Positions 3,301 to 57,457 of a DNA stretch of 64,000 bases are shown in pieces. The number at the start of each line of letters is the position of its first letter. Positions within the stretch are counted from its first letter, which is position 1. The notes beneath the pieces were generated by a model. The model searched no databases. It was not told the origin of the DNA and saw nothing but the letters and a program-made list of their open reading frames with translations. Origin of the DNA: Ruditapes philippinarum (lineage: Eukaryota); the NCBI RefSeq assembly GCF_026571515.1, contig NW_026865317.1, positions 1 to 64,000 of the forward strand. Reading direction: 5' to 3'. The position numbers and the translations under genes are program-made.

Positions 3301-4919
3301 TAACAGAAGAATTAGATAGATAGGTAATGGTAGAGACCTAAAGGGAGACTTTTTTTTTGCTTTCAGTTGGGTTTCATGTTGCACCAACACAGTATAGGTC
3401 ATATGGTGGCTTTCAGTTTTACTGGTGGAGGAATACCTGTGGAGGAATACCTCAGGTATTAACCCTTTGTGCATTATTTCAGGTACAAACGGGCACCTGA
3501 GTGGAACCACCAACACTCCGTAAGCTAGCTAGATAGCTTTCTCACATGAAAGGATTCGAAGATGCTGGTGCAAACTGAACCCACAGTGGTGAGAGGCAAG
3601 TTTTTTGAAATCAATAACAACTTTAACCACTCAGCCAAAAATGGAGAGGTGATTTAGCGGTTAAGGTGTCTGTCTCTCACCCAGGGATCATGGGTTCGAG
3701 CCCTAATCAGGTCATGACCATGTTTCTTCATATAACACCAGTACTAGTTGGTTCCAGGAAGTGGCCTAGAAAGTGATTAATATAAGTTGCAAGGACTTAT
3801 TTCGCAATCGAGCTTAAATAAAATATGTTTAAACCAACCACTCAGCCATGAACACCCCTCTAGACTGTTTAATTTAGTCTCAATATTTCGACCGCAAGAC
3901 TTTACAAACTGATATTATACAGACATCGGAAGGGCGACCATTGTCTATATAATAAAAAGCCCTTAAGCGCACAATTTGTTGGGCTAGTTCTAATGTATAC
4001 AGAAGTATTACTGTATATTTCATTTAGTATCACACAAGCACATCCTCTGAAAATGTAAGTCTAAGCATTTAAATAAAATTGAAATATATATTTTCCTGGT
4101 CAAAAAAGAGGTTGCAGATCTTCAGTTATCTTATAAGTTATATAGTACTCCCCGCGGGTACTGCGTCCTTGCCCATTCCGGTGCAATCAGAAAATGTGTT
4201 TCTTTACACACTGAACATGGCCAATCAAATGTTTCCACCATTAATGTGAAAGTGGAAGTACTGCTTTTTTGAATTTGGATAAAAATTGTTAGAAATATTT
4301 TCATTTTAAATAAAATTCTGTCATTGATAGGAAAATCCAAAACTACCCGAGTGTGTTGAAATTTCTTTTTTATTTTAACCCACAGTTACCAGTTAAACTG
4401 ATAATTTCATGTTCTGACAAGTGAAGGTTGTCTGCTGAAACTGCAGTGACGTCATATTTTATTGAAAAGATTCTACTGAAGCCAAAAAGGGCCATCAATT
4501 TACATACCACGGTACCATAGTGCTCTCCGTTTAAGCTGCCATTCAAAACATGGCTGTTTCTAATATAAATCATTGAGTTATTCTATGAATGACAGGTGTA
4601 TGTTAAACGCAAGATGCGACAGTTAAACACAATTTATTAAAATAGTAAATACAACTTCTTTTTATGTGTACAATTTGCTGGAAATAATAAGAACAGTGGT
4701 ACCATAGGGGACCATCCTAATTCCTATGGATCTGCTGTTATTATTTCTGAATTACATTAACATTACAAGTAGTGACATTTTAGCAGAATTAAAGAAACCT
4801 TGTTGATTCTCCCTACTGTTGTTCAATTCTTTCTTTCTTTTAGATTGTTGAGCTGGATCGTCCTTTTTAAAATCCATGTCGACAGGATTTTCTGTGATGG
4901 ATCCTGGCAGTGAAGGCAT
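397..4919 (-). CDS. USP19: Ubiquitin carboxyl-terminal hydrolase 19-like, 5' part (first CS domain); gene continues beyond left edge
   Basis: Phase-consistent GT-AG exons 4919-4799, 1757-1626, 1152-1016, 607-397 give ...QQAPKYDWSQTEDSVIMVLKIEN...DVTFADSDVTVKLP/DGRNWTWQLYGEIFREDSRVKVKKRKMSLHMKKKKSVTWSNLE, a CS (p23-like) domain resembling USP19 CS1 as recalled, then a Ser/Glu-rich linker. Catalytic domain is not in the window; start codon uncertain. Confidence 0.75.
1799..2035. mobile_element. Palindromic MITE family A, copy 1 (about 240 bp, about 100-bp TIRs)
   Basis: TGAGCCGCG..CAGCATGGATCCAGACCAGCCTGCGCA.. mirrored at the other end; six copies in the window. Confidence 0.88.
2657..3135 (-). 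mobile_element. Helentron-type non-autonomous element (HINE-like), 3' part; same family as 26152-27137
   Basis: Reverse complement of the 161-bp units and of the 3' hairpin end (GGGGCACCCGTGTCCTAT.GACACATTTCTA) seen at 26.4-27.1 kb. Confidence 0.8.
3360..3860 (-). mobile_element. tRNA-derived conserved-core SINE, family S1 (interrupted by a second SINE)
   Basis: Minus strand: A-box TGGCTGAGTGG, degenerate B-box and core GGTGGTTC.ACTCAGGTGCCCG..CCTGAAATAATGCAC shared with copies at 7.2 kb and 61.6 kb. Confidence 0.75.
3638..3835 (+). mobile_element. tRNA-derived SINE, family S2 (V-core-like), with 13-bp TSD
   Basis: A-box TAGCGGTTAAGG, B-box GGTTCGAGCCC, core CACCAGTACT.GTTGGTTCCAGGAA; flanked by AACCACTCAGCCA at 3625-3637 and 3836-3848. 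Confidence 0.78.
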
Positions 4920-35546: not shown

Positions 35547-35951
35547 TAAATAAAGCTTGATTCAAAATTGGTTCTACAGTCTGGTAATAAATTGCATTTT
35601 GAACAGTTTCAGCTATCTATTGTAATAAAAAAGTTTTCCTTGCTGGGTTGAAAATGAAAAACATTAGATAATTCAAGATATATTAAGGTGATAATTATAT
35701 TACTTAATGTTCTTAAATTAGTTTTAACTTTAAAACTTTTCTCCAAACAAAGTTACATGTCCTACCAAAATACGTCTAAAATTTCTGTGTTTGAATCAAG
35801 ACTGGTATACTGTATATAAGTGTAAGCCCATATTAAAATCATTTAAATCAACATTTGAAAATTATATCAACATGATACTACTTATAACAGTAACCATTGT
35901 GACTAGAAGGTGCTAGCATGCGGCATGATGTGTGGAATCTAAACAGAGATA

Positions 35952-36121
35952 TGAGCCGAGTCACGACAAAACCAACATAATGGGTTTGCGACCAGCATGG
36001 ATCCAGACCAGCCTGCGCATCCGTGCAGTCTGATCAGGATCCATGCTGTTTGCTTACCAACTCTATTACAAGTACAAGTGGTCGCAAGCCCACTTTGTTG
36101 ATTTTGTCGTGGTGCGGCTCA
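35952..36121. mobile_element. MITE family A, copy 2 (internally deleted)
   Basis: Same left arm; right arm shortened, ends GCGGCTCA. Confidence 0.85.
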
Positions 36122-36594
36122 TGTTTAATCAGTCATTTAACTGTCTGAAATGACTGAAATGGAGACACCTTTGAATTCTTTAATACCATAAATGTCTTGC
36201 CTCCAAAAAATAAATCACTCCATACATTCCTGTAAGCAAGGATATTGCTTCTATTATTACCGGTATCAGGTACGTATATAAACGTACCTGCCGGTATGTA
36301 GTATTTCTTCTAGAGAAAAACCACTAACTAATGTAGGCAGTAATGTATGTATGTATGTAAAGTATAGTTTATAATATACATTTGTGGTCATAATTGAGAG
36401 CATTTCAATCAATAGATAGTCTTCAAAAAGAAAGACCCTGATCAATAAAAAACTTTACCCATTCAAAATTATACCTATTGGGTGTATTTATATATAACCA
36501 TACTTTACAATATACTTTAAATTATCTGTAATAAAGAACAGATATTATTGAAACAATAATTTTTCAAATAATAATAATTATGATTTCTTCTAGA

Positions 36595-39500: not shown

Positions 39501-42500
39501 ACGAGTCCTCCAGACGAGTATTAGTCATTTTGTTTTTTTATGGAAAGATACAAATACAGAAAGATACCCCAATTCCAGAATCATCTCCTGTTTTTTTTTA
39601 GCGTGCTAAGTGTTTAAACACTCGTGACCTAGATTTAAAGTCTCATCCGAAAGATTGATGAGTAATTATTTAGGAATTGGACACCAGCGTGGAATCGGAA
39701 CATGACTACCTGAGATCACGCAACCGATTAACCTTCGCCACTAAACGAGCATGATAAACGCGGTGCTGAAATCCACTGTTCGCCAAACTTTCAATAAACT
39801 AACGTACAAGTCTTAAAGCGCCGGGGGATTGTAACCATTGTATGGGGGAAATAATTATTTTTAAGAAATAACTTTTTGTAATTTCAAAATTTTCAAATTA
39901 TTTGCCCACTTCGTTTTAAAGAATAATCATTTTACTACGCAAAACGAAAAAATAAGTTTAAAAACTTCTAACTGATATCGGGTAGCTAAGACCCGCAGTA
40001 AATATTGGTTTCCAATTTTACTCTGGGTGTATTTTTTATTATCATTTACATAGTCTTTTGTTTTAAGTGCGACAGTTCATCCAGATAATTATATTTCTTA
40101 AACATTTTGAATTCGGTGGCAATCACAACTCGGCTTTCTCCGCGAATAGAACCAAAGGTACATATATCACACCACTATATTCGAAAATATGAAGGTCTAC
40201 TATACATGTATATTATACGCACGAAATATACGTGCTAAATCTAACTCTATATTTGGCAGGAAAATACATTTAGTGTATGCACAATATTCACATACTACGA
40301 ATTAAACTAACATTCAAGTAATAACATTAATATCTTATTTGTTTCTTTTCATGGATGAATTTAATTTTCAGGAGACGCTTCTGTTGACACTATTTTTGAT
40401 AACAAATTTTGGAGACAGTTACCAGGCAACGATATAAAACTTGAACCTGTGCTCACAAATGCAGATTATGTCCACAAAGTTAATCCGGACATGAAAATAA
40501 TCGTCCTTGTAAGGGAACCCGTTGAAAGGTAATTATTGTACAGGATGTAACTGTATTCAATGATATTGGCACCTAATTGATAACCTAATCGTCTAAAACA
40601 TATTCTTGCATTTAATAACATACTACGACTCAAAAATTGCGGGGAAAATGGGAAAATGTTATGTAAAATATAAGTATCTTGTGATTTTATTAAAGTAAAA
40701 CGGAAATATAAATTATCAAACTAAAGAAAATATTTTTGTGTTTTAATAACAATAAAAATCATGCAGTGTCTTATAATAGTGCAGCCAGCGCCCATGCACA
40801 AAATAAAATAGTTTGCCCGTTTGCGAACCACCATGCTGATCAACCAGATAGCCCTGCGAACTCCGGCGGCCATGTCTGATTCTAGGGGAAACATTTGCTT
40901 GTTTGCTTTCCACAACACCTATAAAAAGTAGAAGAAAACTTTGCAAAAATTAGCGAACAGCATGGAAAATTTTTGATCAACATTTCAGCAAGCGCAGTGT
41001 TCTGCTTTCTTTCATTACTAGGTCGTAAACCTCATTTACGTTTGGTTTTTATTATATATTAATGGATTGTATTCAGACTATATCTACATGTCATCATTCA
41101 TTGGTTATGTTCCCAGCCCTGAGGATTTCCATACCACCGTAGTATACAGAATCAGAAACTTTACTTCTTGTCGACAACACCGCAAACTTAGAGCATGTGC
41201 ATACGATGTTTATGACGATTGGAATATACACACTTACAAGGTTGTTCACAAAGATATGAGCCGCGTCATGACAAAACCAACATAATGGGTTTGCGACCGG
41301 CATGGATCTAGACCAGCCTGCGCATCCGCGCAGTCTGATCAGGGTCCATTCTGTCCGCTTACAAACCCTAAAACAAGCATAGAGAAACTGATAGCGAACA
41401 GCATGGATCCTGATCAGACCGCGCGGATGCCCAGGCTGGTCTGGATCCATGCTGATCGCAAACCCATTATGTTGATTTTGTCGTGACGCGGCTCAATTAT
41501 AATATTACCGTGTATAATTAAGCACATTCTATGCAACACCAAGGTCCTGCTCTTACAAAAGCATTCATAAAATAGCGATGGCAAGATTCAAGTTTATATA
41601 TGTAAGTGGGATCATTTTAACATAGAACATGTCAAATAATAAGCACTCTGAGTGAAGATCATAACAAACTGTTACTTGAAACAACATAAACCTTGATAAC
41701 AAGCGACTGTAACGTGACTAAAGTGACAAAATAAGTAATTTCTGGTCAAAACAATTGGTTACGCGATATATGAAAAGCACTGTAATTTTCAGTATTAACA
41801 AAGTTAACAAACTATGACTAGAATGTGCCCTCTAATTTTAGGTTCGGTTAAGTGTGGGAATGTACTCTATATTTCTAGACGACTGGCTGAAGGTGTTTCC
41901 TCGACATAACGTTCTAGTTGTTAAATCAGAGGACACAAGAGGACGAAATGAAAGGAGCACGTTTAAGAAAATACTACAATTTCTTGGGCTAAGTAAAGAT
42001 TTATTCAAACATAAACAATTTGATTAAACTAATTAATGATTTACATGTAAAATTAACTTTAGTGATAAGTTTCCTTAGATTATGATAATTAATTAAGGCT
42101 TCTAGCGACGAGAAAAATAAAGAAGATATGCATATTTTTATAAGTTTATATATGTTTCTTAATTCGGGGGTATTTCTTTGAATAACGCACTAGTTTAACA
42201 ATGAACCCTCGTATTAGATAGGTGGACAATTTAAAAATAGGTGGACGATTAAAAAAAAAAGTAAAAATGCCTTTAATACTTTTGCTCTTATTCCATTGTA
42301 TTCAAATCGAATGCAGGGAGTTAGTGTCTACAATATGTTACTAATGCTATTTAAGTGAAATTTAGAAAGAGTAAGTGCCTGCAATATTTATGTCTTACAC
42401 ATTACTACTTCTGAATGTGAGAATAAGAAATAGTCAATGTCTGCAATACTTTTAGTATTATTATAATCACAGTTACTAATAAACAAATACTCTAAGTCTT

Positions 42501-44100: not shown

Positions 44101-45366
44101 TCTTAGGTTATTTGTTTGTCTGTCCCAGTATTGTAACATCTTTGCTTTATATATGTTTGTATATGATTATATGTATAGTCTTTTAATTCTGTATTCTTAT
44201 ACCTATAGATAGCTGAAATATCCTGTAACTCAATTTAATTTTTTTATGGTTTAATATTATAAATATAATGCTCAATGAAGATTTGTCAATATTGTAAGTT
44301 CCAAAAGGCATTATTAGTAAATATATTACCAAATTTACATTTCATGCTAAGAAAGGCAGATAATTAGATTTTTTTCTATAAAGTCTATGTCAAATTTTTC
44401 AATTAGAAATGAATGCATGTATTTTAATGATTACATATAATGTGGACAAATATTTGCAGTACATATTTTACATATTCTTCGATGTTTGAAAATTGTTTTA
44501 GAAGCATAATTATTTACATATATAAAATTTCACTTAAGTGTGGTAACAACTTTAATTACAACATACAGGATCTTAAATATATTTTTTTATTTTGTTTTTA
44601 TCATTATTTGCGTTGTGTGATAGTGGCCTGCAGCTTTCTTGTTTTTATATACATGTACATGTGACTCCACTAAGTTTTTGTTGTTGTTATTTATTATTAT
44701 TTTTTTCTTTTGTTGTTGTGTTTTTGTTGTTTTTTTATGTTGTTGTTGTTGTTTAAACTAGCGGGACTTGAAATATTCACGCCGTTTTACCGGAATAATC
44801 ATTTTTATTAACAATGACCAAGATATGACGACGTTCTTTCACTAAAACTGGAGTACTATCGATTATAATATAATTCCGAATATGTTTTTATATTATATAC
44901 ATTTATATTATTGTCCTTTGTATGTTTTTAAATATCATGTTTTTGGGCAGTTTTACCTCAATGGACTTTCTTCATTGAGAAGGTTCAGTTTCAATTGAGT
45001 GGACATGAAATACAATATTATAATTGTACATTTTTCAAAAAAATGTAATTTAGTCTTATGCAAAGAAGAAATAAATAGGCTATTTTTAGGTAAAATGTAT
45101 TGAATAAATCTGGTGGTATTCAACTTTATCTTAATGAGGAAATAGACAGCTGGCTATACAAACGTTTACAACAACAATTATTTCGGTTTGCAGTGGGATA
45201 ATTATCTTGAGACAAGGAAGGACTTGAGAAAATTGTATATCGGCTCTAGATCTTTTTACTCCTTAAATATTTCTTTCAGAAATACTAAAGTATTAAAATG
45301 ATGTTCCGGGCGACTTTGACAAATCTTATAAAAGGAGAAACGAAGACAGATTCATGACTGGATATA

Positions 45367-45590
45367 TGAGCCGCGACACGACATAACCAACATAGTGCGT
45401 TTGCGACCAGCATGGATCCAGACCAGCCTGCGCATCCGCGCAGTCTTATCAGGGCTTACCAGCCCTATTACAAGTAGAGAAACTGATAGCGAACAGCATG
45501 GATCCTGATCAGACTGCGCGGATGCGCAGGCTGGTCTTGATCCATGCTGGCTGCAAACGCATTACGTTGGTTTTGTCGTGACGCGGCTCA
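45367..45590. mobile_element. MITE family A, copy 4
   Basis: Near-full palindrome with a small deletion in the left arm. Confidence 0.9.
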
Positions 45591-46276
45591 TATTAATTTC
45601 TCAAAGACAATGGCAGAAATAGTGTTTGTCTCAAACATTTCAATAAAAAAAGTTCTGTTTTTTTGGTCAGACTTTAAAAACAACGAGATTGTATACATAA
45701 ATAAAAATATATACATGCATATGTAGTAATAGGCAAGTCTGTATGCTCCAAATTAAATGATAGAGAAATAATACATGTACTACTAAATATACAACATCTA
45801 CCCAATAGATCTCTTCAGCACATATGAAGCTCAGATGGAATTTTGACCGGTTATTCCTTTATTTTGAGACCAATCTCAATAAATGTTTCAATAAAGGTTT
45901 GTTTGAATGTTAAGCATCGTGTGGTGGTTAGATTTTGTGAAACTTTTGTGAAGCGACATTTTTTTCATACGCATTGCATATTTTTTGGGCGTACCTGAAA
46001 TAATATCTCGATGAAGACTGCATAAAAATCCGAACAAAAATGGATAAATATAGAGGAAAGCCAGGAGGGTAGAATCACATTTCGATTTTCTTAAAAAAAA
46101 GCTTTGAATTTTATAAAAATGTTTAGAATGTTGAAATCTAACCCTGTGATTGACCTTTTCTTCTCCTTCACATGTCGAGTTATACTGCACATCTGGAGCA
46201 GCGATAATTCACATATATTTTTTACCGATGCTCAATTTTGAGATCCATATGGGGTTCCACCCCCGTGTTACATTAA

Positions 46277-47296: not shown

Positions 47297-47497
47297 GAAT
47301 CCACGTCACGACAAAACCAACATAGTGGGTTTGCGACCAGCATGGATCCAGACCAGCCTGGGCATCCGCGCAGTCTGATCAGGATCCATGCTGTTCGCTT
47401 ACCAACTCTATAACAAGTAGAGAAACGGATGCGCAGGCTGGTCTGGATCCATGCTGGTCGCAAACCCATTATGTTGGTTTTGTCATGACACGGCTCA
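47297..47497. mobile_element. MITE family A, copy 5
   Basis: Same arms, deletion in the right arm. Confidence 0.88.
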
Positions 47498-48468: not shown

Positions 48469-51193
48469 TCATCTTACAATCTCACAGATGAAGTTACGCT
48501 CATTAAAGCACCCATCATCCCCCCACATAAAGTTTTTTGTAAGCATAACACAGTGTTCTTTTCCATTCTTGTTGTTAGGCTGGTTGTTACCCCATACCTT
48601 AAAACTATTCGACTTCAATTGTTTTAGACTGTACGACCACACGAATGTGCCCTCGACGGCTAAGTCATTCAGTCCTATCCAGAACGGAATAAGTGTGGTC
48701 ACTTGATCTGAAATTTAAAAAAAGAAACGAGTTGTTAAAGGGAGAAAACTTATCATTACATTTCAATAAGGAATAAGCACTTTGTCCTAAAGATGTGAGG
48801 TGTATAAAAAGTTCATAATTCCAGGGACAAAGTCCTGAATGTTTTGATTCTGAAAGTTTACGCGCAATGTAAGATTATATTCCTTTTATGTTACGAAATG
48901 GTCATGTAAAATGCAAAAAATATTAGGAATAATTAATATACTATTATATATATTTTTACTTTAGATCTATTAACATATGAGTCGCGTCACGACAAAACCA
49001 ACATAGTTGGTTTGCGACCAGCATGGATCCAGACCAGCCTGCGCATCCGCGCAGTCTGATCAGGATCCATGCTGTTCGCTGTCAGTTTCTCCACTTGTAA
49101 AAGAGTTGGTAAGCGAACAGCATTGATCCGGATCAGACTGCGCGGATGCGCAGTCTGGTCTGGATCCAGCTGGTCGCAAACCCACTATGTTGGTTTTGTC
49201 GTGACGCGGCTCATATGTATTTATTTTATGTATATGACAAACAACTTACTAGTTATTTCAGTCGTAAGAAGTGTATGCTTTTCAGAAGTCAGGACCTCAA
49301 CTAGATGTGCGCCAGCATCAGTACAGTACGTCTAATAAAAAACAAAACAAAAACAAAATACGGGTTAACAAGACCATGATACACATTCTTGTATCATAGT
49401 TTGGAGACCTTTCTGTTGAAAATTAGGCAGAGTTAAATTGTATACATATACATGCACAGTGCGATAACTGGAGTGCAGGTATCAGTTACCCGCACTCCAG
49501 AGCATGCCCATAGATTGGTTCATTTTTGCTGGGGTTTACTTATTGTGACGGCAGAGAAAGGGAATGCGACAGAAATATCATATTCAGATGCTCGTTCATT
49601 GGTTACTTTTTTGGGGGGTTTTATACTGTGACAACAGGGAACGTGTTTTTATGTTTAATAGAAAGAACATCAAAACACTCGGCAATCTGATTAATACTCG
49701 GGGGCTACGCCCCCTCGTACAAATCAGATAGCCTCGTGTTTCGATGCTCTTTCTATTACTTATCACTATCACTATTGCTTATGATAAATGCAATAACTAA
49801 ATATATTAAACTAGACTTCCTTTACTTTGTCTATATCTGTTTGTATAATCAGGGTCATTCAAATAGTTTTGAAAGACCCTGGTTTAATAACTGCCAATAA
49901 AGACCGAAAAAGTACGGTGAACTAAAACTGGCAGAACTGGGTTAAGAAAGTATCGACAATAATCACCATTTTAGACAGAATTTTCTGTCTTGTTTCTTAA
50001 TAGTTATCTTGTTAAGTTTTTTGTTTTAAACAATCATGATTGAAAAAAAGAAGATTTTCTTTCTTAGCGTGAAAAGTATTGTTTCATTTCCTTCTCTTTA
50101 TTATAGCAACAAGAAAATAAGAGTGGCATACGTACCCTTGCCTTTTTCCAAGGTAATATTTCTGTACTGAAGAAAAAGCAGTTAGACTCCGTTGTTATCC
50201 AACCGGAAGGACAGGCAGGAACTGAAATGAATATTTTATATTGACGTGTTTAGGAATAAGATAATGCAATGATCACAAATTTATATGTTCTCTGTTACTT
50301 TGAATACAGAACACAGGCAGAGCATTAAGGTTACCATGGCAACAGTTCATTTTCTATCCTAATGACAACACCATTAGTGGTTTTATTTTTTGATAACAAA
50401 TGAAACAAATCCTAAGTAAAAACAATACTTTTGACATCATTGTTTGGTTTCGTTAACTGCATTTACCTGGTTTTGTTGTAGTCGGAGTGGTTTTTGTTAC
50501 TTCCGATGTTATTGGCCCTGACGTGGAAGTTTCAACCGTACTCAAACCATCCGTTGTGCCTGACGAAGATGTTTCGATTGACGTTGAAGATTGTGAAGAT
50601 GTTTCGATTGACGTTGTAGATTGCGATGATGTTTTGACTGACGTAATTTTTTCTGTTGTAGTCTTCACACCTCCAGTTCTGGTGTCAGTCGATGACGTGT
50701 CTACGGACGTCATAGAGTTTGTCGTAACCTCAGGTGTTGAGTTTGCTAATGATGTGTTGGCTGAAGTCACATTTTCCGTTGTCATATTTCCAGTGCTCGA
50801 TACTGTCGATGATGTGACTTCTGGAGTCGTCATATTGTGCGATGTATTTTCTTGCGTGCTGGTAGAAACAGTTCTTGTCGTTTGTGTTACAACTGTCGTC
50901 GTGGTCGGCTTAACAGTCCGTCTTGTTTCATTTGAGACAACAGCCGACGAGGAACCTCCTTCTGCTAGATCTCCTTTAGTTTCCAAGTGATACACGAGCA
51001 CTATACACGTAGCAACCAAGGATACAACTACCAAAAGAAGGGCGACCACTACAATATAGAATTTCGATTTTGTCATATATCCAGGCGGCGTTGTTCTGTT
51101 ATTGTCGCTAGAACTCATTCCTTCAGCCATGTCAAAACTTTCTTTGCTTCGATATATACCGTTTGTGAAATTTAAATCATCCGTACTAGCCAT
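48469..51193 (-). CDS. Type II transmembrane C-type lectin with Thr/Ser-rich mucin-like stalk, 377 aa
   Basis: Phase-consistent exons 51193-50467, 50221-50136 (CPSGW..CFFFS..W), 49331-49250 (YC..GAHLVEV), 48707-48469 (FWIGLND..EGTFVW..QPN..EHC..WGDDGC..FICE). Single N-proximal TM FYIVVVALLLVVVSLVATCIVLVY. Confidence 0.92.
48978..49213. mobile_element. MITE family A, copy 6
   Basis: Full palindrome in the last intron of the C-type lectin gene. Confidence 0.9.
49656..49758 (-). repeat. About 100-bp imperfect palindrome with GCTACGC apex
   Basis: TAATAGAAAGA.CATC.AAACAC...GTGTTTCGATGCTCTTTCTATTA; apex at 49704-49710. Confidence 0.85.
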
Positions 51194-54055: not shown

Positions 54056-55344
54056 TAGTTGTAATGATATAAATCGTACTGCATATTTACTGCATAGCAT
54101 AATAATTCCTGGATATATTTCAGAATGTTATCATTACAAATTTTTCAGAGCTACATCCCTTTCCCAGTACGGGACTTTTCACTGTGAAATTATCACATAT
54201 GATTTTTATTCATAAATCAGTAATCTATTCAAAAGCTTAATGCTTTTTTTTCAAAAATGTTTACGTTTGGCAACAGCCGGGCCGTTGTTTCTTTGATCAA
54301 ACGATAGCGTTTTTCTTTTTACAATACAAATGAGACTTAAAAGATTTCCCAGGATACGATAAATGAAAACAAAATAAGAAAAAAGGAGAGTACATGAAAA
54401 TGATACATTAAGAACACGCTTTTTTATTTTTATTATTCTTTTTTATTCATTTTATTTTTACAAAAAGCATAATCAAGTATTTAATCAAAAGTTAATCGAA
54501 TACATAGATATAGAGGATATTGAATGAGTGTAAGTTTAATAACGAGTTGAATGCGAGCCTCTGGCGAGCATAAGATTGTTTTATTCAACGAGTTCAATAA
54601 ATTTAGTATTGAATCTACACGAATATAATATTCTATTTACCACATATATAAAATAAGAACAGTAAGCTATTAAAATGAGTAATTTTTCAATGACGCGCCT
54701 ATAGTGTAACGCTAACATTAGCGCTCTTTAAAATAGCGCACATGACGTCCGTATTGTGGCATGAAAATTACCATATTTCACTCGGTGCTACCGCCACTCA
54801 TGAAATATTTATTTTCATTCCACTCGATGAAAATATATCATTTATTTGTAGAAAGAACTTGAATTTTCTGTTTATTACATACATTTTTCTCCTTTTTAAC
54901 ATTAAAATTTGAAAGACTTTTCTTGAAATTTTGTGTACTGGCAGAATTTCAAAGAAAGTAGTCCGGCAACACACCAGTGAAAATACAGAAAATATAGTTT
55001 TCACTGCAGTGAAAAATAAATTTTAAAGTGAAAATACGGAAAATGATAATAAGCATTTTATTTCATCGATATTTCTCAATATTTCATTTATAAGTTTATA
55101 ATAAAAAGTGTTATTACACTAGTGTAATATCGTTTATATTAAATGGCTTTATTACAATCCTGCGACGCGGTTTATGTGATAAAAATAGTTAAGAAAATAT
55201 ATACATGTATAAACAACACATCAATACGATACTAGTAATAAAGATAATAATGTTATCTTTGTCTCAAATTTTCTCGGTGTTTCTACCATTATGATCCTCA
55301 CCTTGTGGCGGCTGTAGGTCAAAACATCTTTATGACAAATTGAT

Positions 55345-55437: not shown

Positions 55438-55552
55438 ATTTACTCCAATTCATAAGTCCACTTAAATTTACAGTAACGATATTACAATATTAAAATCTGG
55501 ATCTAGTGTGATCTCTAGGAAGCATTAATCAAAACAAAATTACATAGAGGAT

Positions 55553-55703
55553 ATTTGTTTGTTTGTGTGTAAGATGAAATTTTATTTCATCGAGTGGGCT
55601 TTAAAAACAGTATTCTCACGAGTGGCGTAGCCACGAGTGAGAATACTGTTTTTAAAGTTCACGAGATGAAATAAAATTACATCTTACACAACAAACAGAC
55701 AAA
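55553..55703 (+). repeat. About 150-bp imperfect palindrome with GCGTAGC apex, heading a probable repeat element
   Basis: Arms mirror around 55625-55631; preceded by ATAGAGGATATT, also present at about 54510. Confidence 0.85.
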
Positions 55704-57457
55704 TTTTCTTTTTATTTTATGCTTTAAAACAAGTTAAACGAAATTTCCATAATTTTAACGTTGATATTAAAATCTGTTTCCCCCATTGAGAGCCCCATTT
55801 AGAGGGAATTTCTCATTAAAAACAAGAAGTCTTGAGCTGAAAAATAAGTCCGCCAATGGAGGTTAAATGAATGTGATATTTATTCATTTTATTAAAAAAT
55901 ATGAATGATCACTTGTTTTAATAATAAAAACAAACAATTCTTGTAGGAGAAAAAGTCCAACCATCCATCCATATTTCTGTTACTTACTGCGAATTTATAT
56001 TAGACCTGGCTTTGTAAAATGTAAACGGCAGCCATTTTTTAAATTCGTGTATTTCATGGGAGGAAAATAATTTTGTAAGATACAGAAGGATATAATTTGG
56101 ATTTGTTAGTCATACACCTTTTTAAAAGAAAGAAAACTTATTTGAGGATTGTAACAGACAAAAAATAAGTGTTGACAGAAGTGAAAACATTCAGAAAAGG
56201 AGCTAGGAAAATGGAAAACTTGGAAGTTTGCTAAGGCATTGTAAGGAACGCTGGGTTGATTTACTTATTTTACGAGTGATAGCTGTCAATGCTTTTCAAT
56301 TTTTCATAAAGCATACGGCAGTTATTGCTCGTAGGATACTTTAATATGCCCAAATGTCATCAAGAGCAGTTTTGCATGGGGTAGGAATGTATTTTTCAGA
56401 CTGTAAAAACGAAACCAAAAAATTTAGAGACGAAATTTTGTGATTGGAATTTGAAGGAATAGAAGTAAGTTTTCTCTCTTTATTTTACTTTTGACATTTA
56501 TGTTATTTATCTATTTCAGCTTTGCTATTTTTTTAACAGCTTGATATTGTCAGAATTGTCAGTAAAAATAGAATTGAGGTACGACATGGGGAAAATCTTA
56601 AAAAAGTAGTTTTGTCATTGAAAAAAGTGAAATTATATTTTGATAATTTTCACTGTGAAATTATCAAATATAATTTTCACGGATAAATCAATAATCCACT
56701 GAAAAGCATAAAATAAATGAAAATCTTTACACTTTATATATCCAACGACGTCCAAGAACTCTTAGAAACCAGAAAAAAAAAAAAAAAAAAAAAAAAAACC
56801 TTACAAGTACGAAAAACCGTCCACATCCTATTTTACTTCTGCATCTTAAGCATTATGTGAACTATAGGTCAAGGTGAACAATTCTAAGCCAGTGGCAATA
56901 AGTGTTCTTTAAATATGTGTTAAGATATATTAAGATATAAAATATGACAAAAAAAAAACAAAATGTTCATAATTCAATACAGATGTCTTTTGATGAAATA
57001 ATTCAGATTTCACAAACCAATTTATTGTGATGACAAATACACGTGCAGTATAAATTACGAAAAAGTGAGTTATATTTGAATGCTGAAAAATATATGCTGT
57101 TTGAAGCTTGAAAACGTACCATTCTTCAGAGAAAAGAGTACAAAATACTTACAGGACCAAGAAATTAATGAAATAATGTCATGGTAAGAACAGAAGAACC
57201 ATAAATATCTGGGGAAAAAGTTATCCCTCGAAAACATCAATAAAAGCAAAATTACAAAATTACATGCAAACTGCAGGGTCGATTTGATTAAGTCTGTACA
57301 TGAGCGATATTGAAAACGTGCAACACCCTTAGCACTGGCTTTAGCAGTACTCAATTTTCAGCTCTTAAAAGTGATAAGGTTTACCGTTTTTGAATATTTG
57401 CCTTAATCTGAAACATTCAAGTTTGTATCTACAGTCTGATTTTGAGTTTTTGTTATT

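Follow-up and report, generated by a model that had tools for sequence, protein, structure and literature searches.

The window analysed here is the whole 64,000-nt stretch at positions 1 to 64,000, forward strand, of Ruditapes philippinarum contig NW_026865317.1. Its main feature is a long hairpin that, in an alignment of 30 copies, begins 9 nt inside the left end of a repeat of about 1.17 kb, here termed family A (Table 1). The boundaries of the repeat are also marked by loose ends of run X9 at 55544 and 56717, and placement of its junction is ambiguous by one A. Two further repeats with hairpins of related design, from other lineages, are present in the same window.

Table 1. Repeats of the window and the parts of the family A element, in window coordinates
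Feature	Position	Strand	Remark
Element of family A, 1,173 bp, ATAGAGG...AATAA; almost certainly non-autonomous and CryptonA-type	55544..56716	+	Boundaries common to 30 other copies
Left end, ATAGAGGAT	55544..55552	+	Predicted top-strand spacer of the folded circle junction
Subterminal hairpin	55553..55704	+	Main feature; folding and arm pairing
Outer CGAG	55591..55594	+	Opposite CGAG at 55662-55665; predicted tandem sheared G.A
Inner CGAG	55619..55622	+	Opposite CGAG at 55634-55637; predicted tandem sheared G.A
GCGTAGC, GNA-triloop mini-hairpin cap with GTA loop	55625..55631	+	
Bridge	55712..55725	+	Complementary to the far end, 56703-56716; DIRS-ICR-like
Weaker AT-rich palindrome near the right end	56627..56682	.	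Common to YR-coding relatives
Right end, ...AAAGCATAAAATAA	56703..56716	+	Last 5 nt resemble the left arm of the target (AWTAH)
Family D, second Crypton lineage, about 370 bp	49389..49759	-	
Third lineage, TCT-capped element, ATAGAGGATATT start	54510..55182	+	

The element and its copies

The hairpin is 100% identical over 151 nt in all 40 candidates scored out of 643, so that at least 40 identical copies exist besides the one in the window, and 111 of the 116 elements compared begin with ATAGAGG. Within the 1.4-Gb genome the hairpin core, CGAGNNGCGNAGCNNCGAG, occurs 3,925 times, as against 0 for the reversed control, and several families that differ in their arms contain it, with lengths of about 1,170 bp (A), 440 bp (B) and 550 bp (C). 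The family A element has no TIR and no stop-free frame longer than 53 codons, and tblastn detects no tyrosine recombinase (YR) remnant in it or elsewhere in the window. At 34 of 50 sites there is no flanking repeat of any kind, the remainder having 1-4 nt in AT-rich flanks, which amounts to no TSD, and empty sites join cleanly, as comparison of L104/L113 with L091, and of family C copies with L021, reveals. A MITE was considered and set aside, the palindrome being at one end only of an asymmetric 1.17-kb element that lacks a TSD.

Folding of the hairpin

Both CGAG/CGAG oppositions, at 55591/55662 and 55619/55634, and the GCGTAGC apex reported in the earlier note are present at those positions. 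In the predicted fold, G55592/A55593 lie opposite G55663/A55664 in the outer tandem and G55620/A55621 opposite G55635/A55636 in the inner one, and across the 61-bp ungapped arms the remaining non-Watson-Crick pairs are two G.T and one A.A only. The relevant part of PMC10085684 gives tandem sheared G.A pairs as the structure of CGAG opposite CGAG, in common with other symmetrical pyrimidine-GA-purine tetranucleotides, and in the account of GCGNAGC mini-hairpins given in PMC13037366 melting is at 70-76 C, with the GTA variant the weakest (70 versus 76 C).

The stability of the hairpin is far above chance: in the ViennaRNA DNA model the strand bearing the G.A tandems (the GA strand) folds at -61.3 kcal/mol (z = -17.2), and 0 of 200 shuffles fold equally well. 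The earlier note had taken the palindrome to be built for folding on one strand only. The complement also folds into a long hairpin, almost as stable (-58.1 kcal/mol, z = -16.5), and 'one strand only' therefore becomes 'one strand favoured'. The expectation that the strands differ in stability stands as to direction, the GA strand being favoured, and fails as to size, since the bias calculated is a modest one of about 3 kcal/mol. Where the GA strand has its G.A blocks, the complementary strand carries T.C loops.

Elsewhere in the family A element the AT-rich palindrome near the right end is without strand bias (-14.1 versus -13.6 kcal/mol). A second internal hairpin, at 56262-56343, has its CGAG paired normally with CTCG (-13.6 versus -8.9 kcal/mol), and is the source of weak miRNA-family matches in Rfam, where nothing reached the gathering threshold.

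Recombinase-coding relatives

A search with DUF3504 gave 149 matches in the genome. Four loci carry a 5.5-kb element, 96-98% alike, whose ends at L104 match those of family A at 79% over 189 nt and 73% over 123 nt; the right end of family A matches L107/L108 at 84-86%. A near-identical (exact) parent of family A was not found in the genome. The three-exon gene of the 5.5-kb element matches DUF3504 and QRICH1, and Phage_integrase weakly, below cut-off; in the gene model of L104 the exons splice GT-AG into an open 488-aa frame with R200, K235, Y329 (where the first catalytic His is expected), R332, H355 and Y364, and at L105 and L091 the recombinase genes are broken by early stops. Beside the YR gene the element has no further frame of 100 aa or more, and none of RT size. 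Two RNA runs cover exons and introns of the L104 gene alike, on both strands and without a splice joint, and two further runs give no coverage of the exons.

An intronless relative, L066, bears the ATAGAGGATATT lineage end and has all six residues of R-K-H-R-H-Y, each conserved in 71-75 of 75 aligned homologues, which are DUF3504 plus Phage_integrase proteins of molluscs and cnidarians. Its structural model (pLDDT 85) matches QRICH1 and Cre and has a Cre-like YR fold. A special structural likeness to integron integrase was not found, Cre (E 7e-8) outranking 2A3V (E 7e-5) in the fold comparison.

Some features of these loci are of interest in themselves. In a YR sublineage comprising L104, L107, L108, L319 and L076 the H-x-x-R motif is interrupted by an intron and has Tyr in place of His (TPY|SxR), as at L104:5300-5310. 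Near-perfect palindromes without GA/GA tandems are present at L104:5354-5440, in the YR intron, and at L063:1130-1240, at the start of the YR frame.

Because a 5.5-kb element with related ends encodes a DUF3504 tyrosine recombinase, the hairpin is almost certainly the 5' end of a gene-less, many-copy, non-autonomous transposon of CryptonA type. A Crypton-type non-autonomous repeat had been one candidate of the earlier note, and the long relative that codes for a YR supports it.

G.A mismatches across families

For comparison of mismatches between families, hairpins were taken from loci picked by their YR gene, not by the hairpin's own sequence, and were oriented towards that gene. A detectable hairpin was present at 47 of 117 YR-bearing loci (a redundant set), giving 18 clusters, from which three inside genes were excluded and one representative of each of the remaining 15 was counted; one intronic perfect palindrome was kept among the clusters and contributed no loop. 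Of the 29 2x2 loops so obtained, 22 are GA/GA, 3 AA/GA, 2 TC/TC and 2 of other kinds, both TC/TC loops being from a single copy, with a D-type hairpin, that faces away from the adjoining YR gene. The GA/GA loops are in the contexts CGAG/CGAG (16), TGAG/CGAA (4) and CGAA/TGAG (2). Single mismatches in these hairpins are G.T in 15 cases versus A.C in 4 (p = 0.019). Enrichment of the mismatch and its concordance with strand, which the earlier note had put forward as a check, hold among gene-oriented hairpins. In the genome-wide core, allowing CKMG at both sites adds 109 cores only, so that at most 109 of 4,034 are repaired, discordant or mutated. Meanwhile the arms change, with compensatory change in 34 of 62 pairs across nine arm families, and GA/GA tandems remain on one strand while this happens.

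The caps are more varied. Most clusters have a GNA cap, but four have TCT and one family has ATA; TCT-capped cores, at 3,408 genome-wide, are about as frequent as the 3,925 of CGAGNNGCGNAGCNNCGAG. A GTA cap is accordingly typical of the lineage of family A and not of every Crypton in the genome, and the GNA cap does not belong to a general code as had been supposed. Recurrence of the same grammar in palindromes with different arms is upheld within the window itself, by the minus-strand hairpin at 49708 with its GTA cap and by the TCT-capped element at 54510. The former is the family D hairpin, 49656-49758, which has two GA/GA tandems; elsewhere a 2.75-kb copy with family D ends is located at a DUF3504 match (L299). 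In the TCT-capped element the hairpin is partly deleted and an internal insertion is present.

That insertion, at 54755-55105, has on its minus strand a decayed hairpin with a GCGGTAGC cap and matches at 82-89% the DNA beside YR genes in L079, L081, L083 and L098. A separate, abundant palindromic repeat, with core GGATCC...GCGC-ATCC-GCGC, has a 4-nt loop and is without GA/GA tandems; its occurrences in the window are at 41257-41495, 1796-2038, 45364-45593, 47305-47489, 48973-49218 and 35951-36122. At L313:1200-2620 an inverted tandem array with a unit of about 21 nt, TCGTGGCCACGA, lies next to a Crypton end.

Whether the tandems are read by a protein is a separate matter. They could be derived from a single ancestor and unread, the folded strand existing all the same and the tandems persisting because stacked sheared pairs are missed by the fold-back correction that makes the rest of the arms uniform. 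Tandem number and spacing do vary, with 19-35 columns between tandems in different families and a single tandem in one of them. All 22 contexts are YGAR, which is weak evidence of selection because transitions such as CpG decay keep YGAR regardless, and the contexts seen are reachable through such transitions. Repaired copies exist too: one CGAG/CTCG is among the first 100 listed cores, and in the TCT-family cluster representative at L069:475-620 the inner GA/GA tandem has become perfectly paired, a conversion suggestive of fold-back correction in the arms. Against unread tandems, nearly every representative of a flanking cluster has an inner tandem 3-6 bp from the apex, in arms that are unrelated. 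Metagenome contigs share the design, some with two or three stacked tandems, and also speak against this reading, to the extent that a motif-selected and thus biased set can (a YR fragment is present on 2 of 120 loci of this motif-selected set). On this evidence, unread tandems are improbable.

Tolerance of G.T pairs, like the weak miRNA-family matches, is what would be expected if the hairpin acted as RNA, as a miRNA-like precursor or a retro-intermediate. Nevertheless, every Rfam score is below the gathering threshold, families differ in whether the GA strand is sense or antisense with respect to the YR gene, triloops dominate and the long copy lacks an RT-sized frame, so that a role as RNA is scarcely credible.

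The bridge to the far end

Shortly after the hairpin, 14 nt are complementary to the final 14 nt of the family A element. Pairing of this bridge changes with the family, being GCATAAAATAA in family A, GCATGAAATAA in C and GCATGTAATAA in B, with one G.T in the majority string of the last, and the match is longer in the YR-coding 5.5-kb family. In the TCT lineage, whose end sequences are unrelated to those of family A, bridge and far end covary (TGTGATAA/TTATCACA), and in lineage D, with ends also unrelated to family A, the bridge is of 12 bp; covariation between bridge and far end is thus specific to lineage in three lineages. When the right end is joined to the left end, the predicted hairpin extends across the junction in all three, and by hand count the GA strand is 2 nt longer than its partner strand in each of the junction folds. 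Given this pairing and its covariation in three lineages, a single-stranded circle would be expected to rebuild a duplex site across its own junction.

Target footprint and stacking

After exclusion of 18 tandem-adjacent elements from the 116, there were 98 target sites, with the consensus A-W-T/G-A-H ^ A-N5-D-T-A-W-T. A is found at -2 in 93 of these and at +1 in 87, and T at +8 in 78 (p = 5e-20). For the dyad, the best fit (r = 0.78) is obtained when the spacer downstream of the junction is 6 bp long, as against 0.31 at most for any other downstream length; the mirrored upstream dyad reaches r = 0.54, and at a 3-bp spacer only. Matches of spacer positions +2 to +7 to the element are near background rates, i.e. 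there is no homology. The footprint of the TCT lineage is similar over 22 sites (-2 is A in 22 of 22, +8 is T in 17 of 22), and the 33 sites of lineage D show a weak downstream dyad and a different register.

Movement by an HUH enzyme acting in trans, of the Helitron/Helentron, Replitron or IS200/IS605/REP-like kind, has a bearing on this footprint. An element that lacks a TSD, has subterminal inverted segments, inserts 3' of a short AT motif and is inherited through a single strand would look HUH-like, and the present one has or would have these features. A target dyad with a 6-bp spacer is, in contrast, YR geometry, and the long copies bearing these ends code for a YR with no further frame reaching 100 aa, which makes an HUH enzyme very unlikely. 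The likeness to IS200/IS605 or REP hairpins drawn in the earlier note is accordingly weaker than that to integron attC or the DIRS ICR.

Tyrosine recombinases cut each strand at the 5' edge of the spacer. With the junction at the left edge of the spacer, exchange of the top (GA) strand would therefore be indicated. Two-strand exchange without homology would be expected to leave copies with swapped spacers as well; among 96 hairpins chosen by apex alone there are none with swapped-spacer ends, 90 beginning with ATAGAGG within one mismatch and the other six being indels, substitutions or rearrangements.

Head-to-tail stacking is frequent, with 40 exact junctions as against a rough expectation of about 0.3-1.1. 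In 5 of 20 stacked junctions examined, members of different families are joined, and all flanks differ. More broadly, Cryptons insert into one another's hairpins, bridges, ends and introns across lineages (L021, L412, L419, L091), L412 being within the complement of another copy's bridge.

A proposed mechanism

A single-stranded intermediate is suggested by two independent features, namely the far-end bridge and an insertion footprint that is one-sided. On balance we think it probable that the GA strand moves as a folded single-stranded circle, inserted by the DUF3504 YR in one exchange that host replication then completes. In the first step the YR would act on the GA strand, joining the right end of the element to its left end. 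The circle junction would read AATAA^ATAGAGG, and the other strand would stay behind intact as donor, so that copy number would be raised. The circle would then fold, with hairpin and bridge constituting a duplex core across the junction in which the GA strand has two bases extra. This core would recombine, at the left spacer edge, with a duplex target of the form AWTAH^ANNNNN-DTAWT, after which replication would resolve the recombination junction. It is likely that the sheared G.A blocks favour the GA strand in this reaction, because the other strand has T.C loops at those places, and the GNA cap may be an optional stabiliser. Among the 15 joints listed of about 415 in contigs from DNA runs there is no circle joint, a comparison that genomic tandems would confound.

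The same element and YR could instead operate on duplex DNA with a strand bias, much as one strand is copied out in bacterial SE elements, or on an extruded cruciform, and the hairpin serve as a priming or protein-exclusion signal for second-strand synthesis. There is precedent in the bacterial SE elements, which in the available part of their description exchange the top strand only around a 6-bp spacer (PMC9345347), and in the GNA mini-hairpins of single-strand replication origins, which bind SSB poorly by the portion of PMC13037366 concerned; the Cre-like fold of the YR and the ability of both strands to fold are also in keeping with it. However, a segment after the hairpin that tracks the far-end sequence in three lineages is left unexplained, and the 6 bp incorporated by SE elements tends to lie at the other end once insertion is complete (same part of PMC9345347), whereas here the spacer is at the left end in the 90 of 96 noted above. 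Movement as duplex DNA is for these reasons rather unlikely, and the folded single-stranded circle is retained as the preferred route.

The mechanism of Cryptons has so far been a proposal by analogy, namely excision as a circle, in the relevant section of PMC3212892. From the locus come exact ends and a target consensus, together with a folded substrate as predicted and a recombinase gene with an open frame of 488 aa, and with these in hand the mechanism is directly testable. Were the folded circle correct, there would be single-strand recombination by the YR of a eukaryotic DNA transposon, a link from Cryptons to the design of the DIRS ICR, an explanation for thousands of copies of a recombinase element and a biological use for tandem sheared G.A pairs; it could bear too on the human Eulor5/6 relics, which derive from Cryptons (treated in part of PMC5753468).

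Comparison with known systems

With CryptonA, as portrayed in the sections covered of Kojima and Jurka 2011 (PMC3212892), Kojima 2018 (PMC5753468) and the Glomhoppers account (PMC13465315), the elements share a DUF3504 YR as the only gene, lack of TIR and TSD, and abundant short derivatives with common ends. Those same sections give no terminal repeats for animal Cryptons, or else short direct repeats together with an assumed circular intermediate, and the relevant part of the PMC3212892 supplement gives 'n.d.' for terminal repeats in two animal Crypton rows. The strings 'hairpin' and 'palindrom' have 0 matches in the main texts of PMC5753468 and PMC13465315, as have 'hairpin' and 'inverted' in six PMC3212892 supplements. 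No published Crypton hairpin or single-strand substrate was found in the literature searched, Repbase, Dfam and subscription journals being outside the search, and hairpin, bridge and target dyad are undescribed in the portions of the CryptonA literature that it covered. Fungal and oomycete Cryptons (F, S) have 4-6-bp terminal direct repeats, whereas here the left flank, AWTAH, resembles the right end, AATAA, on one side only; direct repeats of F/S type were rejected for the present elements on this one-sidedness and on the near-background matching of spacer +2 to +7.

The G.A and GNA motifs themselves have counterparts in single-stranded DNA. Streptomyces telomere overhangs and the mini-hairpins of ssDNA origins (parts of PMC5449611 and PMC13037366), and the CGAG block (part of PMC10085684), share GNA triloops and sheared G.A pairs; on the same partial accounts the telomere and origin hairpins are replication or priming signals, not recombination sites. 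Bacterial SE elements share YR exchange of the top strand only, the 6-bp spacer and copy-out without an empty donor, and have as their own a bacterial host, four genes and a fixed target gene, a terminal hairpin not being described in the available portion of PMC9345347.

DIRS retrotransposons are closer in design. On the part of PMC7192593 that concerns them, their ICR lies internally, pairs with both termini so as to span the circle junction, and is required for mobility, and in the DIRS model it restores the ends before a duplex circle integrates; also shared are the standing of a eukaryotic YR element, single-stranded DNA intermediates (proposed here) and insertion into earlier copies. The complement in the present element differs in adjoining the left end as a fold-back arm. 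Membership of DIRS was rejected, there being no RT/Gag or inverted LTRs and no other frame of at least 100 aa in the 5.5-kb element.

With the attC x attI reaction of integrons, as far as the sections used of PMC2727003 and PMC3458562 go, the proposed scheme shares a YR with a folded single-strand site whose unpaired features set the choice of strand, head-to-tail stacking, and one exchange followed by replicative resolution, the last being conjectural for Cryptons; the insertion footprint is compatible with recombination of the folded strand alone. The differences are that attC is marked by extrahelical bases and the element by G.A tandems and a 2-nt excess, that the site of the element is complete only once both ends are joined, that its targets are dispersed and that its enzyme is in fold nearer to Cre than to IntI. 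The attC core consensus is RYYYAAC/GTTRRRY, and it is absent from the ends of the element. Opinion is evenly poised on whether animal CryptonA elements are the eukaryotic counterparts of integron cassettes, with a site formed only when the ends meet and fold, G.A blocks that mark the strand, a Cre-like YR, one exchange into a degenerate AT-rich duplex and replication to finish. If they are, a tyrosine recombinase would be carrying out copy-and-paste transposition, and self-stacking arrays would arise as its by-product.
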